Shown in pieces: positions 8,419-19,986 of a DNA stretch of 64,000 bases; position 1 is the stretch's first letter; the number at the start of each line of letters is the position of its first letter. The notes below the pieces were generated by a model that saw nothing but the letters and a program-made list of their open reading frames with translations, did no database searches and was not told where the DNA came from. The translations under genes were made by a program, and so were the position numbers. Origin of the DNA: Escherichia phage ECO71P1; sequence record OP172789. One strand, 5' to 3'.

Positions 8419-10088
8419 CAGAATTCATCCTTATCTCTTCCTAAAGAACGTTTGCGTTCAATAACCTTCTTCAAGAATTCAATATCTTCAGGGTCAGATT
8501 CATCGCGGATAAGATACGCCAAAATAGTCATCAGGTCAGAAATGTATTCCCCTGCTTCATTCTTAATCAGCGGCGTAAAGTAACCACGCTGGTTGCGATA
8601 GGTTGCAGGCTCAAATCCAAGCTTCGACATGTGCGGCGCAAGGGTACGTGAGAAAGGCGACTTGCCGCACTTAGCTCTGAAGCCCATAGCGATTGCACCA
8701 CTAGTGATGTGCCAGCGTCCGCTGTGATGTCGGTCATAAGGCGCGGTGATGACGACTTCAACAAGGTCGTTGTCGACCATCTCGTCACGGATAACGCCGC
8801 GAGCACGTTCCATTTCGTTCTTGCTGAACTCAGTAAGCATGCGAGACGTTTCACCAACAAAAGCGTTGTAACCTGCTTCGCCGTGCTTCTCCATCCACGC
8901 AGCACACTCAGCCATCAACTGCCAAACATCTTCTTTCAAAGTGGAAAGGTCAGCTTGGAAGTCTTTCGACCAGTTCGGTTGCCCGTCCTTGTCTGCGAGT
9001 TGGCCAACAAAGATAGGATACACACGACGGTTGCCCGTATCGTCACGCTGCATGCCTGCGTATTCGTTGCCGTCCATGATAGCAATCCACTGGCGCGGTT
9101 TAACCTGCGTATCTTCAAATTTGAAGTCCAGGTCATCTTCCGTCTTAGTCAGGAATGCTTTCATGTTTTCGATGTCGGCCTTTTTAAAGCCTGTCATCTC
9201 GCCAACGTTCGCGATAATTGAGCGACCCGTAATAGCTCGCAAGAACGGGTTGAAGTTCTGCGCGGCCAAGTTCAACGGAATCGGTGTTGCGTGGCGGTCG
9301 TTCATAATAGCTTCGCAAAGCAGCTTACTGAAATAACTCTTCCCTGCGTTCTGGCCGCCGATGAGCGCAATGGAGATTGGCGCTTGACAGCCAGGGTTGG
9401 TCAGGCGGTTATAGAGCGATAGCCAAAAATACACACCGATTTGTCGGTTTAACTCTGTATCGAACGGTCGGAATAGCTCGATAAGGTATTTCTCAATGCG
9501 CGCAGTACCGTCCCATTCAGGCAGCTTCTTGTAGAAGAAGTCCATCAGGTCGTCGCGCTGATAACGCATGGCCCATTCCTTATAGGATTGAGCGACCTGA
9601 CGTGAGTTTGGGTTGGACAGGCCTGCTGCGTCGACAGCGGCAACTATCTCTGTGACTTCCAACGTCCGGTCGGTGAATGTTTCTCCGCGATGGTCGACTA
9701 AGCGTCCACGAAAAGTATCTTTGTGAGGGAATGGGACAATGCCGCTTCCCTTATCAAACAACGCGTCGAAAACCGCATAACGGTTCATGTCACTCGTCCG
9801 GTCCGCCTGAAGAACAAAATCATCTTTCGTCGGTTTGTAGTGAGGGAACTTGATTACCTGAAGTGAGGCGAGCAAACGTGCTCTTTCAACCAAGTCTTCT
9901 TCACCGTAGCACTCCATGCGCTCTGCATCTTTCTCAACAGCCTTATGCTGGAGGCTGATTTTAGCTCTGGTGCCTTGCTGCTCTGCCGCTTGCATCTCTT
10001 CTGAAACACCAGCGTCTTGAATTTCGTCAAAGGTTGCACCAAATTCATCACCTGTATCCTCTGGAAGATTGTCATGTTCAATTGACAT
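8418..10088 (-). CDS. DNA primase-helicase-like P-loop NTPase (VirE/D5 family-like)
   Basis: Walker A GGQNAGKS in the C-terminal half of a 556-aa protein; architecture typical of phage replicative primase-helicases. Confidence 0.7.
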   Translation of the reverse strand: MSIEHDNLPEDTGDEFGATFDEIQDAGVSEEMQAAEQQGTRAKISLQHKAVEKDAERMECYGEEDLVERARLLASLQVIKFPHYKPTKDDFVLQADRTSDMNRYAVFDALFDKGSGIVPFPHKDTFRGRLVDHRGETFTDRTLEVTEIVAAVDAAGLSNPNSRQVAQSYKEWAMRYQRDDLMDFFYKKLPEWDGTARIEKYLIELFRPFDTELNRQIGVYFWLSLYNRLTNPGCQAPISIALIGGQNAGKSYFSKLLCEAIMNDRHATPIPLNLAAQNFNPFLRAITGRSIIANVGEMTGFKKADIENMKAFLTKTEDDLDFKFEDTQVKPRQWIAIMDGNEYAGMQRDDTGNRRVYPIFVGQLADKDGQPNWSKDFQADLSTLKEDVWQLMAECAAWMEKHGEAGYNAFVGETSRMLTEFSKNEMERARGVIRDEMVDNDLVEVVITAPYDRHHSGRWHITSGAIAMGFRAKCGKSPFSRTLAPHMSKLGFEPATYRNQRGYFTPLIKNEAGEYISDLMTILAYLIRDESDPEDIEFLKKVIERKRSLGRDKDEF

Positions 10089-11397: not shown

Positions 11398-12480
11398 CTA
11401 TTTTATGCCACCTGCGCGACGATTTATCATATCAAGTTGATTCTCAATATAAGGCATTACTACTGCTTCGACAAAAGCGGTCCATCCTTTCTTGCCTTCC
11501 CCTTTCCGGTGACAGTCGTGAGCGCAACCGAAAACGAATTCATGTTCAGCGCCAGGGATTGGGCCGCGAAAATAAGCGCCGTATGGGTCGCCGTTGGTGT
11601 GCTCTTCACCCCAAGGACAGATGATGCGGCATTTACCTGACATGTTTTCAACCACATCGCCATCGGACCCTTCGCCCATCTTATTGCGCGCAAGGATTTG
11701 CTGGGCTATCTTATACCAAACAGCGTCATATTTGTATTCGTCAACGTCGATTTGAATTTCACGCTTTTGCGGCATAACGACGTGGAAACCGAAGGCTTGG
11801 CAAATCTCTTCGATTGTGTAGCGCAAAGAATAGTCTGCATGAACAAGTCGGCAGCGGAACGGGTCGCCGTTCTCATCGACATATTTATAGGGGCCGTCGT
11901 GAGTCACACGCTTATTGTTGATGCACCCAGGAACACGACCCACGCGTGTCACATCTTTAATCGTATTGTCGCCGCCCTTCTTGAGTACCATGTTTACGAA
12001 AGACCCAAGGAATGCTTTGAACTGAATAAGATGGTCAATCGGTTCTTTAAAGAAGTACCACAGCTGATGGTTGTTCGGTGAAGTCTCAACAATGACGGTG
12101 GGCTTCAGGCGCTCGAAAAAGAATTCCAAATCTAAATCGCCCTTTGACCCTTTACCGTGTCCGATGTCGTCGACCATCATCGCCATGCCATGACCGAAAG
12201 CCGATTCCGTGCGCCAGTATCGCATCTCGCCTGTCTTTGGGTTGGGAGACTTACGCATTGAACTTATGCAGGCGTAACCGTTCTGATGTTGCATCAGCGG
12301 CTTGCCAAGCTTCCAAGGCTTAGGCCAGAAGCTGCTGTTAATCTTTTTGCCGCGCTCGTCGGTCTGCACCGTTGCTTCAGGCGCAAACACTGTCATGACG
12401 CGTTCATCTTCTGGAATGCCTCTTTGGAGTTCCGTCAAAAACTCTTCGATTATTTTTGCTTCTTCTCTTAAACTAGCCAT
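11398..12480 (-). CDS. DNA primase-like protein (possible primase-polymerase type) with C-terminal Cys/His cluster
   Basis: 360-aa protein first in the minus-strand block, divergent from the replication block; VDDIGHGKGSKGD acidic motif and C...C...H...C...C.H cluster; assignment by motif resemblance only. Confidence 0.45.
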   Translation of the reverse strand: MASLREEAKIIEEFLTELQRGIPEDERVMTVFAPEATVQTDERGKKINSSFWPKPWKLGKPLMQHQNGYACISSMRKSPNPKTGEMRYWRTESAFGHGMAMMVDDIGHGKGSKGDLDLEFFFERLKPTVIVETSPNNHQLWYFFKEPIDHLIQFKAFLGSFVNMVLKKGGDNTIKDVTRVGRVPGCINNKRVTHDGPYKYVDENGDPFRCRLVHADYSLRYTIEEICQAFGFHVVMPQKREIQIDVDEYKYDAVWYKIAQQILARNKMGEGSDGDVVENMSGKCRIICPWGEEHTNGDPYGAYFRGPIPGAEHEFVFGCAHDCHRKGEGKKGWTAFVEAVVMPYIENQLDMINRRAGGIK

Positions 12481-12640
12481 CTTTCTTTCCTTCGGTGATC
12501 AATACCTGCAGTATAATATTGAGTGATACAAAGTCAACAATATTTACCATTTAGTTCACAATTTCGATTTACTTTGCTTTATACTATATCTGCAATTATA
12601 CTATCAGAAAATATTTCCGCACTAACAAAGGTCGCCTGAA

Positions 12641-12967
12641 ATGAACGAAAAAGATACGAAGCAACGAGAACGTGCAACACACGTCGGCATCGTTGAGTCC
12701 TTCCTTAATACAAGACTGAATTCAAGTCTTACAATTATGCGATTCCTGGGTCAACCAGACAGAATCAAATTCATCTTTGCCGCAAATCCGGTATCGCTTT
12801 ACATCCCTGTTGAATCCATGGCGTACCTGGTGCGCGACGAGCAAGGGTGGAAGATACCAAACACGACTGTTTTCTTCAGTCACGTTGACGGTGAGATGTT
12901 TGAACGAAAAGAAGATTGCCATTTTATTCCAGTATATCTGGACCTTGAAAGCGTAGTGGAGTTATAA
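12641..12967 (+). CDS. hypothetical protein (108 aa)
   Basis: ORF track; first gene of the plus-strand block after a divergent promoter region. Confidence 0.5.
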   Translation: MNEKDTKQRERATHVGIVESFLNTRLNSSLTIMRFLGQPDRIKFIFAANPVSLYIPVESMAYLVRDEQGWKIPNTTVFFSHVDGEMFERKEDCHFIPVYLDLESVVEL

Positions 12968-14254: not shown

Positions 14255-14310
14255 TAAGTTATCCCAAACGGGGAATATAAAATAAACTAATTTATTTAAG
14301 GACTGTGAAT

Positions 14311-15150
14311 ATGGCCGAAGCAATCAAAGTATTATCTAAAGAAGAAAAACAAGCAGCTGCAGCAGAACGTCGTCGCGTGGCTGAAGAAAAACGCCTGGCT
14401 AAAAAGAAAGAAGCCGAAGAAAAACGCCAGAAGCGTGAGCAGGAAAAACAAGCCAAGCGTGAAGAAGCTGCACTGAAACGCAAGCAGGCCGCTGATGAGA
14501 AAGCACAGAAACGTGCTGAAGAAGCAGCGAAGAAAGCCAAAGAGCGTGCAGAAAAAGCTGCTGCTAAGAAAGCAGAGCGTGAAGCCGCTAAAGCAGCAAA
14601 AGAAATCGAAAAGGCAAAGGCTAAAGAAGAAGCCAAGCGCCTGAAAGCTGAACAAGCTGCTGCTAAGAAAGCAGAGCGTGATCAAGCCCGTGCTGCAGCG
14701 AAGGCCGAAAAAGAGAAGGCCAAAGAAGAAGCTAAAGCGAAACGCAAGGCAGAGCGTGAAGCTGCTAAGATTGCGGCTAAAGAAGCTGCAGAAAAGCAGA
14801 AAGAACAGCGTAAGAAAGAAGCTGAAGAACGTCGCAAAGCCATCGCAGAACGTAAGGCTGCTAAAAAGGCAAACGGTCAGCGTCGTGCAAAAGCAACCCA
14901 CTTCATCTACACTGGCAATGGCCTGAGCCAGCCGCAAGAGCATTCCACCCGTGGACGCGTTCTGGCGGCGATCAAAGAAGGCGAAGTTGGCGTGGCGCAG
15001 TCTATCGATGAGCTGGGCGAAAAAGTTAAAGATCAACTGTTTGGCGCTTCCGTTCGCTCCTACCTGAGCAAGCTGGAAGAGATGGGCCACATCGAGTTTG
15101 TCGATGTTGAATCCAACGAAGATGCCGAAGACGGTGATCAAGCGGAATAA
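14311..15150 (+). CDS. Lys/Ala/Glu/Arg-rich low-complexity helical protein with C-terminal globular domain and acidic tail
   Basis: About 200 aa of KAEKAAAKKAEREA-type repeats (DNA-level direct repeats of gctgctaagaaagcagagcgtga), then ~70-aa non-repetitive domain ending EDAEDGDQAE; terminator follows. Confidence 0.7.
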   Translation: MAEAIKVLSKEEKQAAAAERRRVAEEKRLAKKKEAEEKRQKREQEKQAKREEAALKRKQAADEKAQKRAEEAAKKAKERAEKAAAKKAEREAAKAAKEIEKAKAKEEAKRLKAEQAAAKKAERDQARAAAKAEKEKAKEEAKAKRKAEREAAKIAAKEAAEKQKEQRKKEAEERRKAIAERKAAKKANGQRRAKATHFIYTGNGLSQPQEHSTRGRVLAAIKEGEVGVAQSIDELGEKVKDQLFGASVRSYLSKLEEMGHIEFVDVESNEDAEDGDQAE

Positions 15151-15282: not shown

Positions 15283-16278
15283 ATGAACATGAAACAACCT
15301 GTAATGATTATCGGCGGCGGACTGGCAGGACTTATCACCGCTTGTCACTTCCCGAACTCTGTTGTGTACGAAGCAGGGGAACGAGCGCAACAGCACAAGG
15401 CGCTGCTACGCTTTCGCAGCGAAGAAGTAAGCCGTATTACCGGAATCCCTTTTAAGGCTGTGACAGTTGACAAGGCTGTGTATTTTCGCGGCCACTACTA
15501 CCACGACCATTGCCCAATCAACCTTGCCAATATGTATTCCATGAAGGTCACCAATCAATTTGGCAGCCGTTCAATCATGAAGCTTAAGACTGCAACGCGT
15601 TATATTGCGCCTGATGACTTTTATGATCAGCTTGTCGACAAACTGGGTGACCGAATATTCTTTAATACTCCGGTTGATACTCTTTGCGGCTATAGCGAGA
15701 CGCCAATCATCAACACGTCGCCGCTGCCAGTCATGATGAAGCTGGCTGGGATTGATCAAAAGCTTGATTTCTCATTTGATAAAGCAAACATTCGTGTTTA
15801 CCGCTTTAAGATTAAACGTAAGTGTGATTTGTATCAGACAATTTACTTCCCTGACTACTCCGTCAGAACTTACCGCGCATCAATTACTGGTGACACGCTT
15901 ATCATTGAAACAATTCCTTTGGTCAGCGTGAGTGAAGCTGCAGTTGAAGCCGCTGGCGGCATCACTCGTTACCGTGACATGAAGCTGCGCGCAGAAGTCG
16001 ACGAAGTGTTGACAGCCTTTGGCCTCTCATGGAGCGACATCGCTCTTGAAGAAGTTGAAAAGGTCGACCAGAAATATGGCAAGATTGTCGACATTCCGAA
16101 AGACTTGCGACACGCCCTACTCCTGCAGCTGACTATGGATTTGAACGTGTTCAGTGTCGGTCGATTTGCTACCTGGCGCAACATTTTGCTTGATGACGTT
16201 GCCCATGACCTTGTTGAAGTTGAAAAACTCATCAAAGCAAATAACTATCAAAAATTTGCTTATATTGCTAATAAATAA
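15283..16278 (+). CDS. FAD/NAD(P)-binding Rossmann-fold oxidoreductase (flavoprotein-like)
   Basis: N-terminal dinucleotide-binding motif VMIIGGGLAGL...E; 331 aa; exact family unresolved. Confidence 0.55.
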   Translation: MNMKQPVMIIGGGLAGLITACHFPNSVVYEAGERAQQHKALLRFRSEEVSRITGIPFKAVTVDKAVYFRGHYYHDHCPINLANMYSMKVTNQFGSRSIMKLKTATRYIAPDDFYDQLVDKLGDRIFFNTPVDTLCGYSETPIINTSPLPVMMKLAGIDQKLDFSFDKANIRVYRFKIKRKCDLYQTIYFPDYSVRTYRASITGDTLIIETIPLVSVSEAAVEAAGGITRYRDMKLRAEVDEVLTAFGLSWSDIALEEVEKVDQKYGKIVDIPKDLRHALLLQLTMDLNVFSVGRFATWRNILLDDVAHDLVEVEKLIKANNYQKFAYIANK

Positions 16279-16343: not shown

Positions 16344-16790
16344 ATGAAACGAATCACTGGAATCGCGCTTGCCGCTACTGCTATTCTCGGCACCATGTAT
16401 ATGGAAGCAACTGAAGCTGCCATCCGCACTTCCGATTCAGTCGCTGTTTACGATTGCGAAGCGATGGACGGTAAGACCGCAGCAACGACTGGTGCGAAGA
16501 TTACCACTTACATCGGTGTGAATGAGCAAGAAGGTCTGAATATTCAGATTCAGGGATTCACAGGGAAAGGTGCCAACCGTACTCCGTGGATGCAACGTTT
16601 CACTTTCGTCCAGCCTCGTTCAACTGGCGGCTTTATCAATCTGATTGGTGAAAACCGTTCTGGTGCAGAAATCTTTACATCAATGAGTTCTAATAATGAA
16701 CCAAAGAAAAGTTTTCAGTTGCTTTATAACGCACAATTCGTTTATCATTGCACCTTCTCTGGTGATCAGCAACTAGTGAATTACCGTTAA
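16344..16790 (+). CDS. hypothetical exported protein (N-terminal signal-peptide-like segment, two Cys)
   Basis: MKRITGIALAATAILGTMYMEATEAA hydrophobic N-terminus; good RBS. Confidence 0.5.
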   Translation: MKRITGIALAATAILGTMYMEATEAAIRTSDSVAVYDCEAMDGKTAATTGAKITTYIGVNEQEGLNIQIQGFTGKGANRTPWMQRFTFVQPRSTGGFINLIGENRSGAEIFTSMSSNNEPKKSFQLLYNAQFVYHCTFSGDQQLVNYR

Positions 16791-16803: not shown

Positions 16804-17577
16804 ATGAAAGTTGAATTAATTCGATACACCCAAGATGCACTTGACCTTTTGCTGGAAACAAAGAACACGCGCATGACTGGTAAGCCTGTCTCTGAGATGA
16901 CGGAATCAGAGAAGCAAGAGCATTGGCGCTACATGCTTGATACAATCAAGTCACCTTTTGACTTTGTGGACTATATCTTTGACATAACCGTTGTTTCAAA
17001 GAATATGACTCATCAGATGGTCCGAACACGCGCAGGCGCATATCAAGAACGCACCAGTCGCGCTCAGGAATCTTCTGCATTTGATGCGATTCGCCCTAAA
17101 GCATTTGAGCACCCTGACGGCTCCACAAGCGAGCTTGGCGAGAAGTGGGATGATGCGATGGCGACTATTGATGCCATATATCAAGAGCTTCGCGCGGCTG
17201 GCGCAGAGATTCAGGATGCGCGTGCCGTGTTGCCTTCTAATATGCAAACGCATATCATGGCAAAGTTCAACTTGCGCACGCTGCAGCAGATGGCGTCAAA
17301 CCGCTTGTGCACGCGCACTCAAGGCGAGTATCAAGAAGTATTCCGCGCAATGGTTGCGGAAGTCCTCAAGGTGCACCCGTGGGCTAATCCTTTGCTGCAG
17401 CCGCAATGCATCGGTATGGGTAAGTGTGCGTTTCCTCGTCACGGTAAAGCCCATTGCCCTTGGTATCGTGATTGGATGGATACCACTGCACAGCAGGAAG
17501 AGTTGCGCATTCAGTTTTGGGATGCCGCGCCAATCACCAACAATCCAGTTGCTAAAGATGGAGTATCAAAAGGATGA
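16804..17577 (+). CDS. thyX: ThyX-like flavin-dependent thymidylate synthase homologue with altered signature (RTR...TSR in place of RHR...SQRY)
   Basis: SKNMTHQMVRTRAGAYQERTSRAQ aligns to the ThyX RHRx7S block as recalled; 257 aa; translationally coupled to next gene. Confidence 0.6.
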   Translation: MKVELIRYTQDALDLLLETKNTRMTGKPVSEMTESEKQEHWRYMLDTIKSPFDFVDYIFDITVVSKNMTHQMVRTRAGAYQERTSRAQESSAFDAIRPKAFEHPDGSTSELGEKWDDAMATIDAIYQELRAAGAEIQDARAVLPSNMQTHIMAKFNLRTLQQMASNRLCTRTQGEYQEVFRAMVAEVLKVHPWANPLLQPQCIGMGKCAFPRHGKAHCPWYRDWMDTTAQQEELRIQFWDAAPITNNPVAKDGVSKG

Positions 17578-18446
17578 GTTTTAAAAATAACCAAATCTTG
17601 AACGTATTCGACCTTGACGGAACTCTGTTTGATGACCGTTGGCGCTTAGACCGCATCAAGATTGCAGGTCCGTTGTCAGACTATGATGACTATCACAGCG
17701 GTATTGGTTATGATCAGTTCTATCCTCACATTGCAGCAGCAGTAGAGTCAGCATCTCTTCGCGGTGAGGCGGTTGAATATTGGACTGCAAGGCCAGAAAA
17801 ATACAGACAAGTGACTTTTGAACGTCTGGACAATGTTTTTCCTTTTGATGAATTTACAATCAAGATGAGAGACTCTGGCGACAAACGTCCATCAACTATT
17901 ATGAAATCTGAATGGCTATCGCACGCTTTGCGGCACGGCGATTATCGAATCATCAATATATTCGACGACCGACAAGACGTACTCGCGCGGATGCAAGATG
18001 AAGCCTTGTATTATAATTCCGTTGCTCAAAATAAAATCGCTTTTACGTTTAATCTTTGCAAGGCAGGTGAAGTGGTGCAACAATTAGCAATTGATCCAAG
18101 CGCAACGGGGCAAGAAGAGACTAAGGCTGTGGAAATTGAACAATCTCCGGCAACCGCCGCCGATATTCTTGATGCGATGGCAGCAACCTTCCGTGAGCGC
18201 AACGCTGTCTATGGCGATAACGCTGTGATGGTAGGCCAGGTTATGCAGGTGCTTTTCCCTAATGGCGTAACGTTGAAAACGCCGGAAGACTACCACATGT
18301 GGCATCTGTTCGAGCTTAAGATTGTCAAGCTTACACGCTTTGCAATCAGCGGCCTGAAGCACGAAGACTCTATACACGACGATGGTGTTTACAGCGCCAT
18401 GTGTGAACGTCTTGTCAACACCCATAATATTAATTTCAATAAATAG
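17574..18446 (+). CDS. HAD-superfamily phosphatase domain fused to a C-terminal domain of unknown function
   Basis: N-terminal DLDGTL (HAD motif I); ATGA overlap with the ThyX-like gene. Confidence 0.55.
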   Translation: MSFKNNQILNVFDLDGTLFDDRWRLDRIKIAGPLSDYDDYHSGIGYDQFYPHIAAAVESASLRGEAVEYWTARPEKYRQVTFERLDNVFPFDEFTIKMRDSGDKRPSTIMKSEWLSHALRHGDYRIINIFDDRQDVLARMQDEALYYNSVAQNKIAFTFNLCKAGEVVQQLAIDPSATGQEETKAVEIEQSPATAADILDAMAATFRERNAVYGDNAVMVGQVMQVLFPNGVTLKTPEDYHMWHLFELKIVKLTRFAISGLKHEDSIHDDGVYSAMCERLVNTHNINFNK

Positions 18447-18511: not shown

Positions 18512-19195
18512 ATGAAAAAAGTAATTGTTGTAACTGGCTGCAATTCCGGTCTTGGTAAATCCATTTTTGACACCCTTGGCGCTTACGGTCACGAAGTTGT
18601 CGGTATTGATTTGGACAACGGTTATGACATCCGTAACGCGAAACAGATGAAAGAGCTTCTCTCTCAATACGACGTAGAGGGCTTGATCAACTGCGCTGGC
18701 GTCAACTCCAACAACTGGTTTGAAGACGTTAACTACGAAGAGTTTAATCGCGTTATGCACACCAACGCCTTCTCTTTCGTTAACACGACTCAGGCCGCGC
18801 TGAAAAGTCTTATTGACAACAAAGGTTTTGTGATCAACATCGTTTCCAACGCTGCGCATATTCCTATGACGTCCAGCTTGTGTTATAATGCTTCCAAGGC
18901 CGCTGCGCTTATGATTAGCAAGCAGATGGCTCACGAGCTTACGCCTAAATACGGGATCACGGTCTTCTCTATTAGTCCTAACAAGTTGCGTGGCACTGGT
19001 ATGTCTAAACAGATTGAAGATGCTGTTTGCGCGACTCGCGGCTGGACTCCTGAGTATGCTGCTGAATACCAGAAAAAGGCGTTGATGAATGGATTGGAGA
19101 CTGAGCCGCAAGTAATTGCTGACTTCATTCGCCATATCTTAATTACGGGCGCATGGCGCTTTATGTCTGGTACTGATATTCCATTTGGGAAATAA
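18512..19195 (+). CDS. short-chain dehydrogenase/reductase (SDR) family oxidoreductase
   Basis: TGxxxGxG (VTGCNSGLGKS), NCAG, catalytic YNASK motifs. Confidence 0.75.
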   Translation: MKKVIVVTGCNSGLGKSIFDTLGAYGHEVVGIDLDNGYDIRNAKQMKELLSQYDVEGLINCAGVNSNNWFEDVNYEEFNRVMHTNAFSFVNTTQAALKSLIDNKGFVINIVSNAAHIPMTSSLCYNASKAAALMISKQMAHELTPKYGITVFSISPNKLRGTGMSKQIEDAVCATRGWTPEYAAEYQKKALMNGLETEPQVIADFIRHILITGAWRFMSGTDIPFGK

Positions 19196-19434: not shown

Positions 19435-19986
19435 ATGCCACACTTTAAAATTGAACAAATCGCCCTGTCAATTCCAGATGCTCAGCGTGCACAGGATTTT
19501 CTGGCTAAAATCGGCCTGACAGAATGGTTCCATGATCATGTTGTTGCTACTGGTCGCGTATTTGAAAATGACGAGTTTAAAGGTCGTCGCGACGATTGCA
19601 CCAACGAAGCTGACTTGCGATTCAACTATCAGGCTGGCAACGGCACCGATGGCGGCGCTGGTAAGCCTCTTGAGCTTGAAATCCTTGACTACACAATGGG
19701 TTGCAACTGGATCAACGAAAACATCGACATGCTTGATGCGCACGATAATCAGGTCAGCCATCTTGGCATGCATGTGACTGCCGCTGAACTTGCTGAATGG
19801 CGTAAGTTCTTTAAAGAAGAAGGCATTCAGGTTGCGCAGGAAGTCGTAACTGACTCTCACACCAACCCAAATATTGCTGGTCAGCGTCGTTACAACTATG
19901 TGATCTTTGATACGCGTGAAATCATCGGTGTCGACCTTAAGTTCATTGTGCGGTTGAATCAAGACGGTACTCCGTACACTGCATAA
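19435..19986 (+). CDS. VOC (glyoxalase/bleomycin-resistance/dioxygenase)-like protein, tentative
   Basis: Size and N-terminal pattern reminiscent of VOC fold; weak assignment. Confidence 0.35.
   Translation: MPHFKIEQIALSIPDAQRAQDFLAKIGLTEWFHDHVVATGRVFENDEFKGRRDDCTNEADLRFNYQAGNGTDGGAGKPLELEILDYTMGCNWINENIDMLDAHDNQVSHLGMHVTAAELAEWRKFFKEEGIQVAQEVVTDSHTNPNIAGQRRYNYVIFDTREIIGVDLKFIVRLNQDGTPYTA

Follow-up and report, generated by a model that had tools for sequence, protein, structure and literature searches.

Introduction

The closest described relatives of the gene analysed here are the canonical flavin-dependent thymidylate synthases (ThyX, or FDTS), such as TM0449, Rv2754c and PBCV-1 A674R. 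In these enzymes, the RHR motif makes hydrogen bonds with flavin adenine dinucleotide (FAD), at the phosphate of its adenosine monophosphate moiety, the ribityl chain and the flavin mononucleotide phosphate, and does not contact the pyrimidine; in Mycobacterium tuberculosis ThyX, Ser71 and Arg190 are also FAD contacts (PMC6514825). The substrate, deoxyuridine monophosphate (dUMP), is hydrogen-bonded by Arg78, Arg80, Ser88 and Arg90 (PMC3498832), and its uracil is activated by Arg174 (PMC8316439). His53 stacks on the folate and on the reduced flavin, Tyr91 and Ser88 have been proposed to help the departure of the carbinolamine hydroxyl, and mutation of Tyr91 slows flavin oxidation about 1000-fold (PMC11940539). 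A ThyX mutant in which the motif Ser is replaced by Ala remains active (PMC4913046). Here, we study a gene encoding a ThyX-like protein in which several of these residues are replaced. It lies in a stretch of 64,000 nucleotides of Escherichia phage ECO71P1 (sequence record OP172789), to which we refer as the window.

Our results suggest that the gene probably encodes a functional flavin-dependent synthase of deoxythymidine monophosphate (dTMP), remodelled within a large phage lineage. We think that thymidylate synthesis most likely remains its activity, because the Thr in place of the RHR His spans thousands of phage relatives and the nucleotide-binding arginines are intact.

Results

Domain, family and fold

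The 257-residue product of the open reading frame (ORF) at 16804-17577 matches the Pfam family Thy1 (PF02511) with 106.1 bits (E = 2.6e-30, cut-off 24.8), from residue 5 to residue 193 and from profile position 2 to 191 of 191, and PHROG 85 (thymidylate synthase) at 1.7e-35. Its AlphaFold2 (AF2) model, built with 114 homologues, has a predicted local distance difference test (pLDDT) of 94.8 and a predicted template-modelling score (pTM) of 0.90. The best Foldseek matches of this model in the PDB are all Thermotoga maritima ThyX (E ~2e-11), with template-modelling scores of 0.63 when normalized by the query length and 0.75 by the target length. Thy1 is the only significant domain match and the fold is that of ThyX. 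The protein is a homologue of ThyX far beyond chance, with the fold and the full-length domain match of the canonical enzymes, as a first-pass annotation made from the letters of the window had proposed. It does not show the hallmark of the ThyA-type hydroxymethylases that act on dUMP or dCMP in phages with modified bases, namely a Thymidylat_synt fold with a catalytic Cys. In the public records of its relatives, the gene is always called 'thymidylate synthase' when it is named, and otherwise 'hypothetical protein'.

Residues kept and residues changed

We aligned the motif region without gaps in three ways: with phmmer to T. maritima ThyX, with a family profile aligned to the ThyX of M. tuberculosis, Corynebacterium glutamicum and T. 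maritima, and with MAFFT. The three alignments give identical equivalences, which we write with the T. maritima residue first and that of the window protein second. The residues that are kept include Gln75 (Q71), Arg78 (R74), Arg80 (R76), Arg90 (R86), Arg147 (R140), Asn163 (N156), Arg165 (R158) and Arg174 (R167). The residues that changed are His53 (I48), His79 (T75), Ser83 (A79), Ser88 (T84, which keeps the hydroxyl), Tyr91 (A87) and His178 (R171). The window protein departs from the strict motif RHRxxSxxxxSxR, because it reads R-T-R-A-G-A-Y-Q-E-R-T-S-R, with all three arginines present. The first-pass annotation had already read RTR for the RHR motif and TSR for the conserved Ser region, and had placed them at 17010-17070 (residues 70-89), which is right to a few bases: the aligned block spans 16996-17067. 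The protein has no second RHR or Ser-x-Arg-Tyr block in any other place, so both substitutions stand. The changes at Tyr91, His53 and His178 come in addition to those two.

Both FAD-contact positions of M. tuberculosis ThyX, Ser71 and Arg190, are kept, as S50 and R158, and so are the two arginines of the RHR motif, around a central Thr whose hydroxyl can also donate a hydrogen bond of the kind made by the His. The residues that hydrogen-bond dUMP, together with Arg147 and the activating Arg174, are all present as R74, R76, T84, R86, R140 and R167. The replacement of Ser88 by Thr is presumably mild, because ThyX with Ala at this position is still active. The first-pass annotation had taken the His to Thr and Ser to Thr changes as signs of altered chemistry. 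Yet, since the RHR motif binds FAD, with the His at its phosphates, the residues that bind dUMP are present, arginines included, and the Ser88Ala enzyme is active, these two changes alone give no argument for a new chemistry, all the less as the Thr is found across the lineage (see below). As for Tyr91, it has been called 'strictly conserved', but it is not universal even among the solved ThyX proteins, because in the family-profile alignment C. glutamicum ThyX (PDB 3ge9/3fnn) has SQRF where the others have SQRY.

Similarity to PolB

PolB is a ThyX-like enzyme that methylates C5 of uridine monophosphate (UMP) in polyoxin biosynthesis. It has the Thy1 fold and was itself recruited to a different pyrimidine nucleotide, and the first-pass annotation had cited it as an example of such recruitment. 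If the phage protein were of this kind, it would methylate UMP, or another pyrimidine nucleotide, instead of dUMP, and the Ala at the position of Tyr91, on the active-site loop that covers the nucleotide, might open space for the sugar. However, the parallel does not hold well. The family profile matches the ThyX of M. tuberculosis, C. glutamicum and T. maritima at 7e-31 to 3e-26 (7e-31 for M. tuberculosis), against 1e-19 for PDB 4p5a/4p5b, which we take to be PolB (the structure entry is labelled only 'Thymidylate synthase ThyX'). More generally, every solved homologue other than bona fide ThyX matches the profile at 1e-19 or weaker. Moreover, there is no antibiotic cluster around the phage gene, nor are there genes of nucleoside-antibiotic biosynthesis near it; it lies in a DNA replication module, and what use a phage would have for 5-methyl-UMP is not apparent. 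We thus regard a PolB-like activity as very improbable.

A substitution shared by a phage lineage

The altered positions are highly conserved among relatives. In 120 close homologues, the most distant of them 52% identical, there is no substitution at T75, I48, A87 or any of the substrate-binding arginines (120/120). Searching 1.84 billion cluster representatives yielded 1862 relatives. Among the best 150 of these, more than 70 have Thr at the centre of the RxR motif and about 35 have His, with Gln, Ser or Asn in the rest. The Thr is a trait of the lineage and no local oddity. In 132 diverse relatives, near-invariance extends to R74 and R140 (132/132 each), R167 and Q71 (129/132 each), R76 (128/132) and R86 (126/132), and R158 is likewise near-invariant. 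T75 and the four cysteines described below are under strong purifying selection, which argues for an active enzyme.

Relatives also differ in how far they depart from the canonical enzymes. When scored for His53, His79 and Tyr91, 11 are fully canonical, 18 have only the His of the RHR motif and 81 lack all three residues; the position of His53 is occupied by Ile, Leu or Val in most of the derived branch. This continuum, from canonical forms (His53, RHR, Tyr and the four cysteines) to fully derived ones, argues for the gradual remodelling of one function. A catalytically dead protein, retained as a regulator that binds nucleotide or flavin, or as a structural partner, could also have lost three residues that are important in canonical ThyX and would score below the cut-off of the ThyX equivalog model (see Discussion). 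But such a protein would not be expected to keep T75 and every arginine that binds the substrate or FAD, and their invariance over deep divergence is what one expects of an active site under selection. The probability that the enzyme is dead is therefore, in our view, very small.

Named carriers of the gene include Pbunavirus (49% identical), phages of Serratia, Pantoea, Erwinia and Xylella, some mycobacteriophages, Gordonia phages and rhizobiophages. Over 4400 proteins, on phage-sized contigs, make up a sister clade with RTR and without the cysteines. An example of the Pbunavirus ThyX is PJG24_061 of Pseudomonas phage JG024, an orthologue at 49% identity over the full length. It shares with the window protein the RTR motif, Ile48, Ala87, the four cysteines and the C-terminal NPVA..G motif, and differs from it by an insert of its own, of about 45 residues, between the third and the fourth Cys.

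Cellular genomes are nearly devoid of such genes. A pattern scan of limited sensitivity, covering one genome for each of 185,579 prokaryotic species, found only four loci: a contig of 595 bp and three ThyX genes of the canonical type. Because there are so few, the derived form seems to be essentially phage-borne. The short contig, from Xanthomonas pisi DSM 18956 (NZ_JPLE01000216.1), encodes the first 55 residues of a ThyX of the derived type at 95% identity, and is probably phage DNA or assembly contamination.

The derived class appears to be undescribed, if it is defined by RTR, the loss of His53 and Tyr91, the four cysteines, the C-terminal extension and the conserved module presented below; the gene itself is annotated in public records. 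Literature searches for ThyX motif variants, iron-sulfur ThyX and Pbunavirus ThyX returned nothing on the RTR variant. ThyX of Trichodesmium erythraeum, which reportedly has 'distinctive ThyX motifs' (Liu and Yang are said to have described it in 2004), may be relevant. We considered gp48 of mycobacteriophage L5 as a possible experimentally studied member of the branch, but it is in fact canonical (GHES, RHR, SQRY and no set of four cysteines) and is uninformative on the derived forms.

Four cysteines and a C-terminal extension

The window protein also has features outside the altered motif. Some 55 residues extend it at the C terminus; they are conserved up to the last positions, G253 and S255 included, and are covered by no solved ThyX structure (profile matches stop near position 204). 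Four cysteines are invariant in the 120 close homologues: C169, two residues past the catalytic R167, and C202, C208 and C218, within the extension. They come as a complete set (74 representatives) or are missing altogether (53 representatives); the few sequences with an incomplete set are fragments. We infer from this pattern a putative four-cysteine (Cys4) metal site, either a structural zinc or an iron-sulfur (Fe-S) cluster, that would tie the extension to the loop past the catalytic Arg. A structural zinc is the simpler reading of the two. The conservation of the tail suggests that it docks at a functional place, possibly at a neighbouring active site or on a partner protein, and the extension may supply residues that replace the lost ones. 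We found no publication on a Cys4 site in ThyX.

The four cysteines also occur in ThyX proteins of the canonical type, which have His53, RHR and Tyr, and one of these proteins is in a bacterial chromosomal setting. This protein, from an Oscillospiraceae metagenome-assembled genome (SVRN01000032, 3974-4669), is 32% identical to the window protein over residues 1-202 and has the four cysteines at the same aligned positions. Unlike the window protein, it has SGHHS (with His53), RHR and SQRY, reaches 165 bits with the thyX equivalog model, has a short C-terminal extension, and is surrounded by bacterial chromosomal genes and no phage genes. Because canonical proteins carry them too, the cysteines do not go hand in hand with the altered motif or the loss of His53.

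These observations bear on the possibility that the product is still dTMP but is made with other partners. The enzyme would then depart from the canonical use of NADPH and folate. A partner might reduce it, such as the FAD-type oxidoreductase encoded next to it or, by way of an Fe-S cluster, ferredoxin or flavodoxin from the host; alternatively, it might draw on a different one-carbon donor. Such a change of partners would fit the replacement, in most of the branch, of the His that stacks on folate and flavin (PMC11940539), the all-or-none pattern of cysteines with one of them so close to the catalytic Arg, and the persistence of the oxidoreductase gene just upstream in distant phages. However, many relatives without Cys4 still have the neighbouring flavoprotein, the presence of Cys4 does not track with the loss of His53, and zinc provides a simpler explanation. 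Hence, we find this scenario clearly unlikely.

Gene neighbourhood

The ThyX-like gene is part of a replication module, by the genes of the epsilon and alpha subunits of DNA polymerase III (Pol III). The order of genes, all on the same strand, is: TolA-like protein, FAD-type oxidoreductase, signal-peptide protein of 148 residues, ThyX-like protein, HAD_PNKP-type phosphatase, short-chain dehydrogenase/reductase (SDR), an ORF of 71 residues, VOC/glyoxalase-like protein, and Pol III epsilon and alpha. The coordinates of these genes and of the relevant residues are given in Table 1.

Table 1. Features of the ThyX-like gene and of its neighbours in the window.
Feature	Position	Strand	Remarks
ThyX-like (Thy1-fold) gene	16804-17577	+	ATG start, TGA stop, 257 residues; Pfam, PHROG, AF2 model
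I48 = His53 (M. tuberculosis His69)	16945-16947	+	folate/flavin-stacking position
ThyX motif-region block SKNMTHQMVRTRAGAYQERTSRAQ	16996-17067	+	residues 65-88
R74-T75-R76 = Arg78-His79-Arg80 (RHR)	17023-17031	+	central residue Thr
T84-S85-R86-A87 = Ser88-Gly89-Arg90-Tyr91	17053-17064	+	Ser to Thr, Tyr to Ala
Segment with R140 (Arg147), N156 (Asn163), R158 (Arg165) and R167 (catalytic Arg174)	17221-17304	+	all retained
Four invariant Cys	17308-17457	+	C169 (17308-17310), C202 (17407-17409), C208 (17425-17427), C218 (17455-17457)
C-terminal extension	17407-17574	+	residues ~202-257; CAFPR, W224-M-D, F238-W, N247-P-V-A..G..S
TolA-like protein	14305-15150	+	281 residues; extremely rich in Lys/Glu/Ala repeats; 'TolA protein' in relatives
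FAD-type oxidoreductase	15283-16278	+	331 residues; upstream of the ThyX-like gene
Signal-peptide-like ORF	16344-16790	+	148 residues; between the flavoprotein and ThyX-like genes
HAD_PNKP-type phosphatase	17574-18446	+	ATG overlaps the ThyX stop codon (ATGA)
SDR	18512-19195	+	45% identical to the gene at the same position in contig L012
Glyoxalase/VOC-like protein	19435-19986	+	weak Pfam match; 32% identical to the gene at the same position in contig L012

Part of this module is found in very different phages. In JG024, the flavoprotein (41% identity), the HAD phosphatase (26%) and Pol III epsilon (55%) accompany ThyX, whereas the SDR, the VOC-like gene and the gene of the signal-peptide protein are missing. 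Two metagenomic phages that are very distant, with a ThyX just 36-37% identical to that of the window, also have the trio of flavoprotein, ThyX and phosphatase. One of these two also has the SDR and the VOC-like gene: in an 86-kb metagenomic phage contig (L012), they are at 11478-12179 and 12193-12657, in the same order as in the window. Nevertheless, the phages that carry the module also have in common the genes Pam3_Gp34, DUF7307 and those of Pol III, so that the conserved order may be due to shared ancestry and not to a joint pathway.

The individual neighbours offer few clues to function. The flavoprotein starts with GxGxxG, has a GRFATWR...DD motif and has no Pfam match; its AF2 model has a fold of the amine-oxidase/UDP-galactopyranose-mutase type, which gives no specific assignment. 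Its family of about 1950 proteins is found entirely on phage-sized contigs. The C-terminal 110 residues of the phosphatase are encoded as a separate ORF (9314-9649) in a distant phage contig (L014); they match only their own PHROG and no Pfam family, even at E = 10, which leaves the MazG/DUF6378-like identity that we had considered for this domain unsupported. The C-terminal part of the TolA-like protein is 38% identical to a 'putative structural protein' of Pbunavirus. The ORF of 148 residues matches no family, lacks a counterpart in Pbunavirus JG024 and looks like an inserted moron.

We recognised in the module no nucleotide kinase, deaminase, dUTPase (MazG-like proteins aside), glycosyltransferase, hypermodification gene or second thymidylate synthase. 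In the non-structural part (24000-68355) of the genome of a close relative, the ThyX-like gene is the sole annotation that resembles a thymidylate synthase, and no ThyA-like gene is annotated there.

We also considered Pseudomonas phage Y10 (OQ572411.1, 66.7 kb, flagged UNVERIFIED) as a possible carrier of both ThyA and a derived ThyX, but it has no ThyX-like gene. The ThyA in this record is 70% identical to that of Escherichia coli, and nothing in the record resembles the proteins of Pbunavirus or the genes of the window; the record may be host DNA.

Phage genus and restriction resistance

The window comes from an E. coli myophage of the Wifcevirus type. A stretch of 5 kb around the gene is 93-97% identical to that of about 28 phages, including WFH, FEC19, ECML-117 and Bas98-101 of the BASEL collection. 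The BASEL Wifcevirus phages have been reported to resist nearly all the restriction-modification systems tried, EcoP1_I being the exception, for a cause that is unknown, and this resistance includes that to EcoRI in vivo. The paper that first described the group contains no restriction-digest data for its phages. We counted restriction sites in the window and compared them with the numbers expected from base composition. EcoRI sites are present in normal numbers (16 vs 18 expected), so that site avoidance does not explain the resistance to this enzyme.

Other sites deviate from expectation. BamHI sites (GGATCC) are absent (0 vs 13 expected), and GATC (106 vs 247), CCWGG (80 vs 183), RsaI GTAC (108 vs 247) and HpaII CCGG (76 vs 183) are depleted. 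HindIII sites (AAGCTT) number 52, vs 18 expected.

Discussion

Our study showed that a gene of E. coli phages encodes a protein with the domain, the fold and the nucleotide-binding residues of ThyX, in which a set of residues at the periphery of the active site has been replaced, as in much of a phage lineage. Homology, fold, the residues kept and changed, and the family-wide pattern come directly from the data presented here. For cofactor use, substrate and product, as for the metal site, our proposal extrapolates from the mechanism of the ThyX proteins of T. maritima, M. tuberculosis and PBCV-1. The protein would form a tetramer, and bind FAD through R74, T75, R76, S50 and R158. The methylene of CH2-tetrahydrofolate (methylene-tetrahydrofolate) would be taken onto N5 of the reduced FAD, while R74, R76, T84, R86, R140 and R167 would hold and polarise dUMP. 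The latter would then attack the carbon carried by N5, and the flavin would reduce the resulting exocyclic methylene to a methyl. In this way, dUMP would be converted to dTMP during infection, raising the supply of thymidylate for the Pol III-type replicase of the phage itself. What has been remodelled is the periphery of the flavin/folate site: the His at the FAD phosphates became Thr, His53 became Ile, and the proposed general acid Tyr91 became Ala. To this comes the conserved C-terminal extension, probably pinned by the Cys4 metal site to the loop past the catalytic Arg.

Several observations weigh against a conserved thymidylate synthase. The literature presents His53 and Tyr91 as important, conserved residues (PMC11940539), and the window protein has neither. 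The score of the protein on the NCBIfam thyX equivalog (TIGR02170) is 73.7 bits, below the cut-off of 87.9; canonical controls score 156-175, relatives from the same branch are marginal (78-98), and the JG024 protein is just over the cut-off (88.1 vs 87.9). Members of the close family hardly occur in cells, so no organism is known to rely on the derived form as its sole thymidylate synthase, and we found no experimentally studied member of the branch in the literature. Translation of the gene is coupled to that of a phosphatase gene, within a conserved module that includes three oxidoreductase-type genes of unknown role. Finally, the resistance of Wifcevirus phages and the normal number of EcoRI sites keep open the modification of their DNA, without tying it to the ThyX-like gene. 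There are better grounds than the RTR and TSR substitutions to doubt a standard chemistry: the loss of His53 and Tyr91, the equivalog score, the confinement to phages and the unexplained resistance of the genus.

These same observations would fit an enzyme that binds FAD and a uracil nucleotide in the manner of ThyX but has a different outcome at C5, and which would release, for example, 5-hydroxymethyl-dUMP or another C5 adduct where ThyX reduces it to a methyl. The proteins of the neighbouring genes (flavoprotein, phosphatase, SDR and VOC-like) might process the product, which would finally enter the phage DNA as a modified base and guard it against restriction. The loss of all of His53, His79 and Tyr91 could have such an effect, given the slow flavin oxidation of Tyr91 mutants, and the association of flavoprotein, ThyX and HAD phosphatase in Pbunavirus and in two very distant contigs (with SDR and VOC-like genes in one) might reflect a pathway. 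Yet, the Arg that activates the uracil and all those that bind the phosphate are unchanged. No nucleotide kinase was found that could convert a modified deoxynucleoside monophosphate to its triphosphate, and we recognised neither an enzyme clearing deoxythymidine or deoxyuridine triphosphate nor a transferase acting at the DNA level. The module is also present in the well-studied Pbunavirus, for which we found no report of modified DNA, though this search was not systematic, and we found no publication linking a ThyX homologue to the hypermodification of phage DNA. The gene order itself may be mere inheritance within one large lineage of phages. On the whole, we consider an altered C5 outcome possible, if unlikely. 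The more specific proposal that the derived branch acts with the co-inherited flavoprotein and the coupled phosphatase (and the SDR and VOC-like proteins where present) to make a C5-substituted nucleotide for virion DNA, and that this explains the resistance of Wifcevirus, strikes us as quite improbable.

The two outcomes, dTMP or another product, have different consequences. If dTMP is made without His53, the His of the RHR motif and Tyr91, then the roles that have been proposed for these residues, in the stacking of folate and flavin, in the 'OFF' conformation and in general-acid help, need qualifying, and the derived branch provides a natural mutant series for the study of the ThyX mechanism. 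If dTMP is not made, phage annotations by the thousand are in error, and the resistance of Wifcevirus to restriction may stem from a new nucleotide pathway. The Cys4 signature, which is also found in canonical bacterial ThyX and in no solved structure, is a separate and readily testable lead for a family of drug targets.

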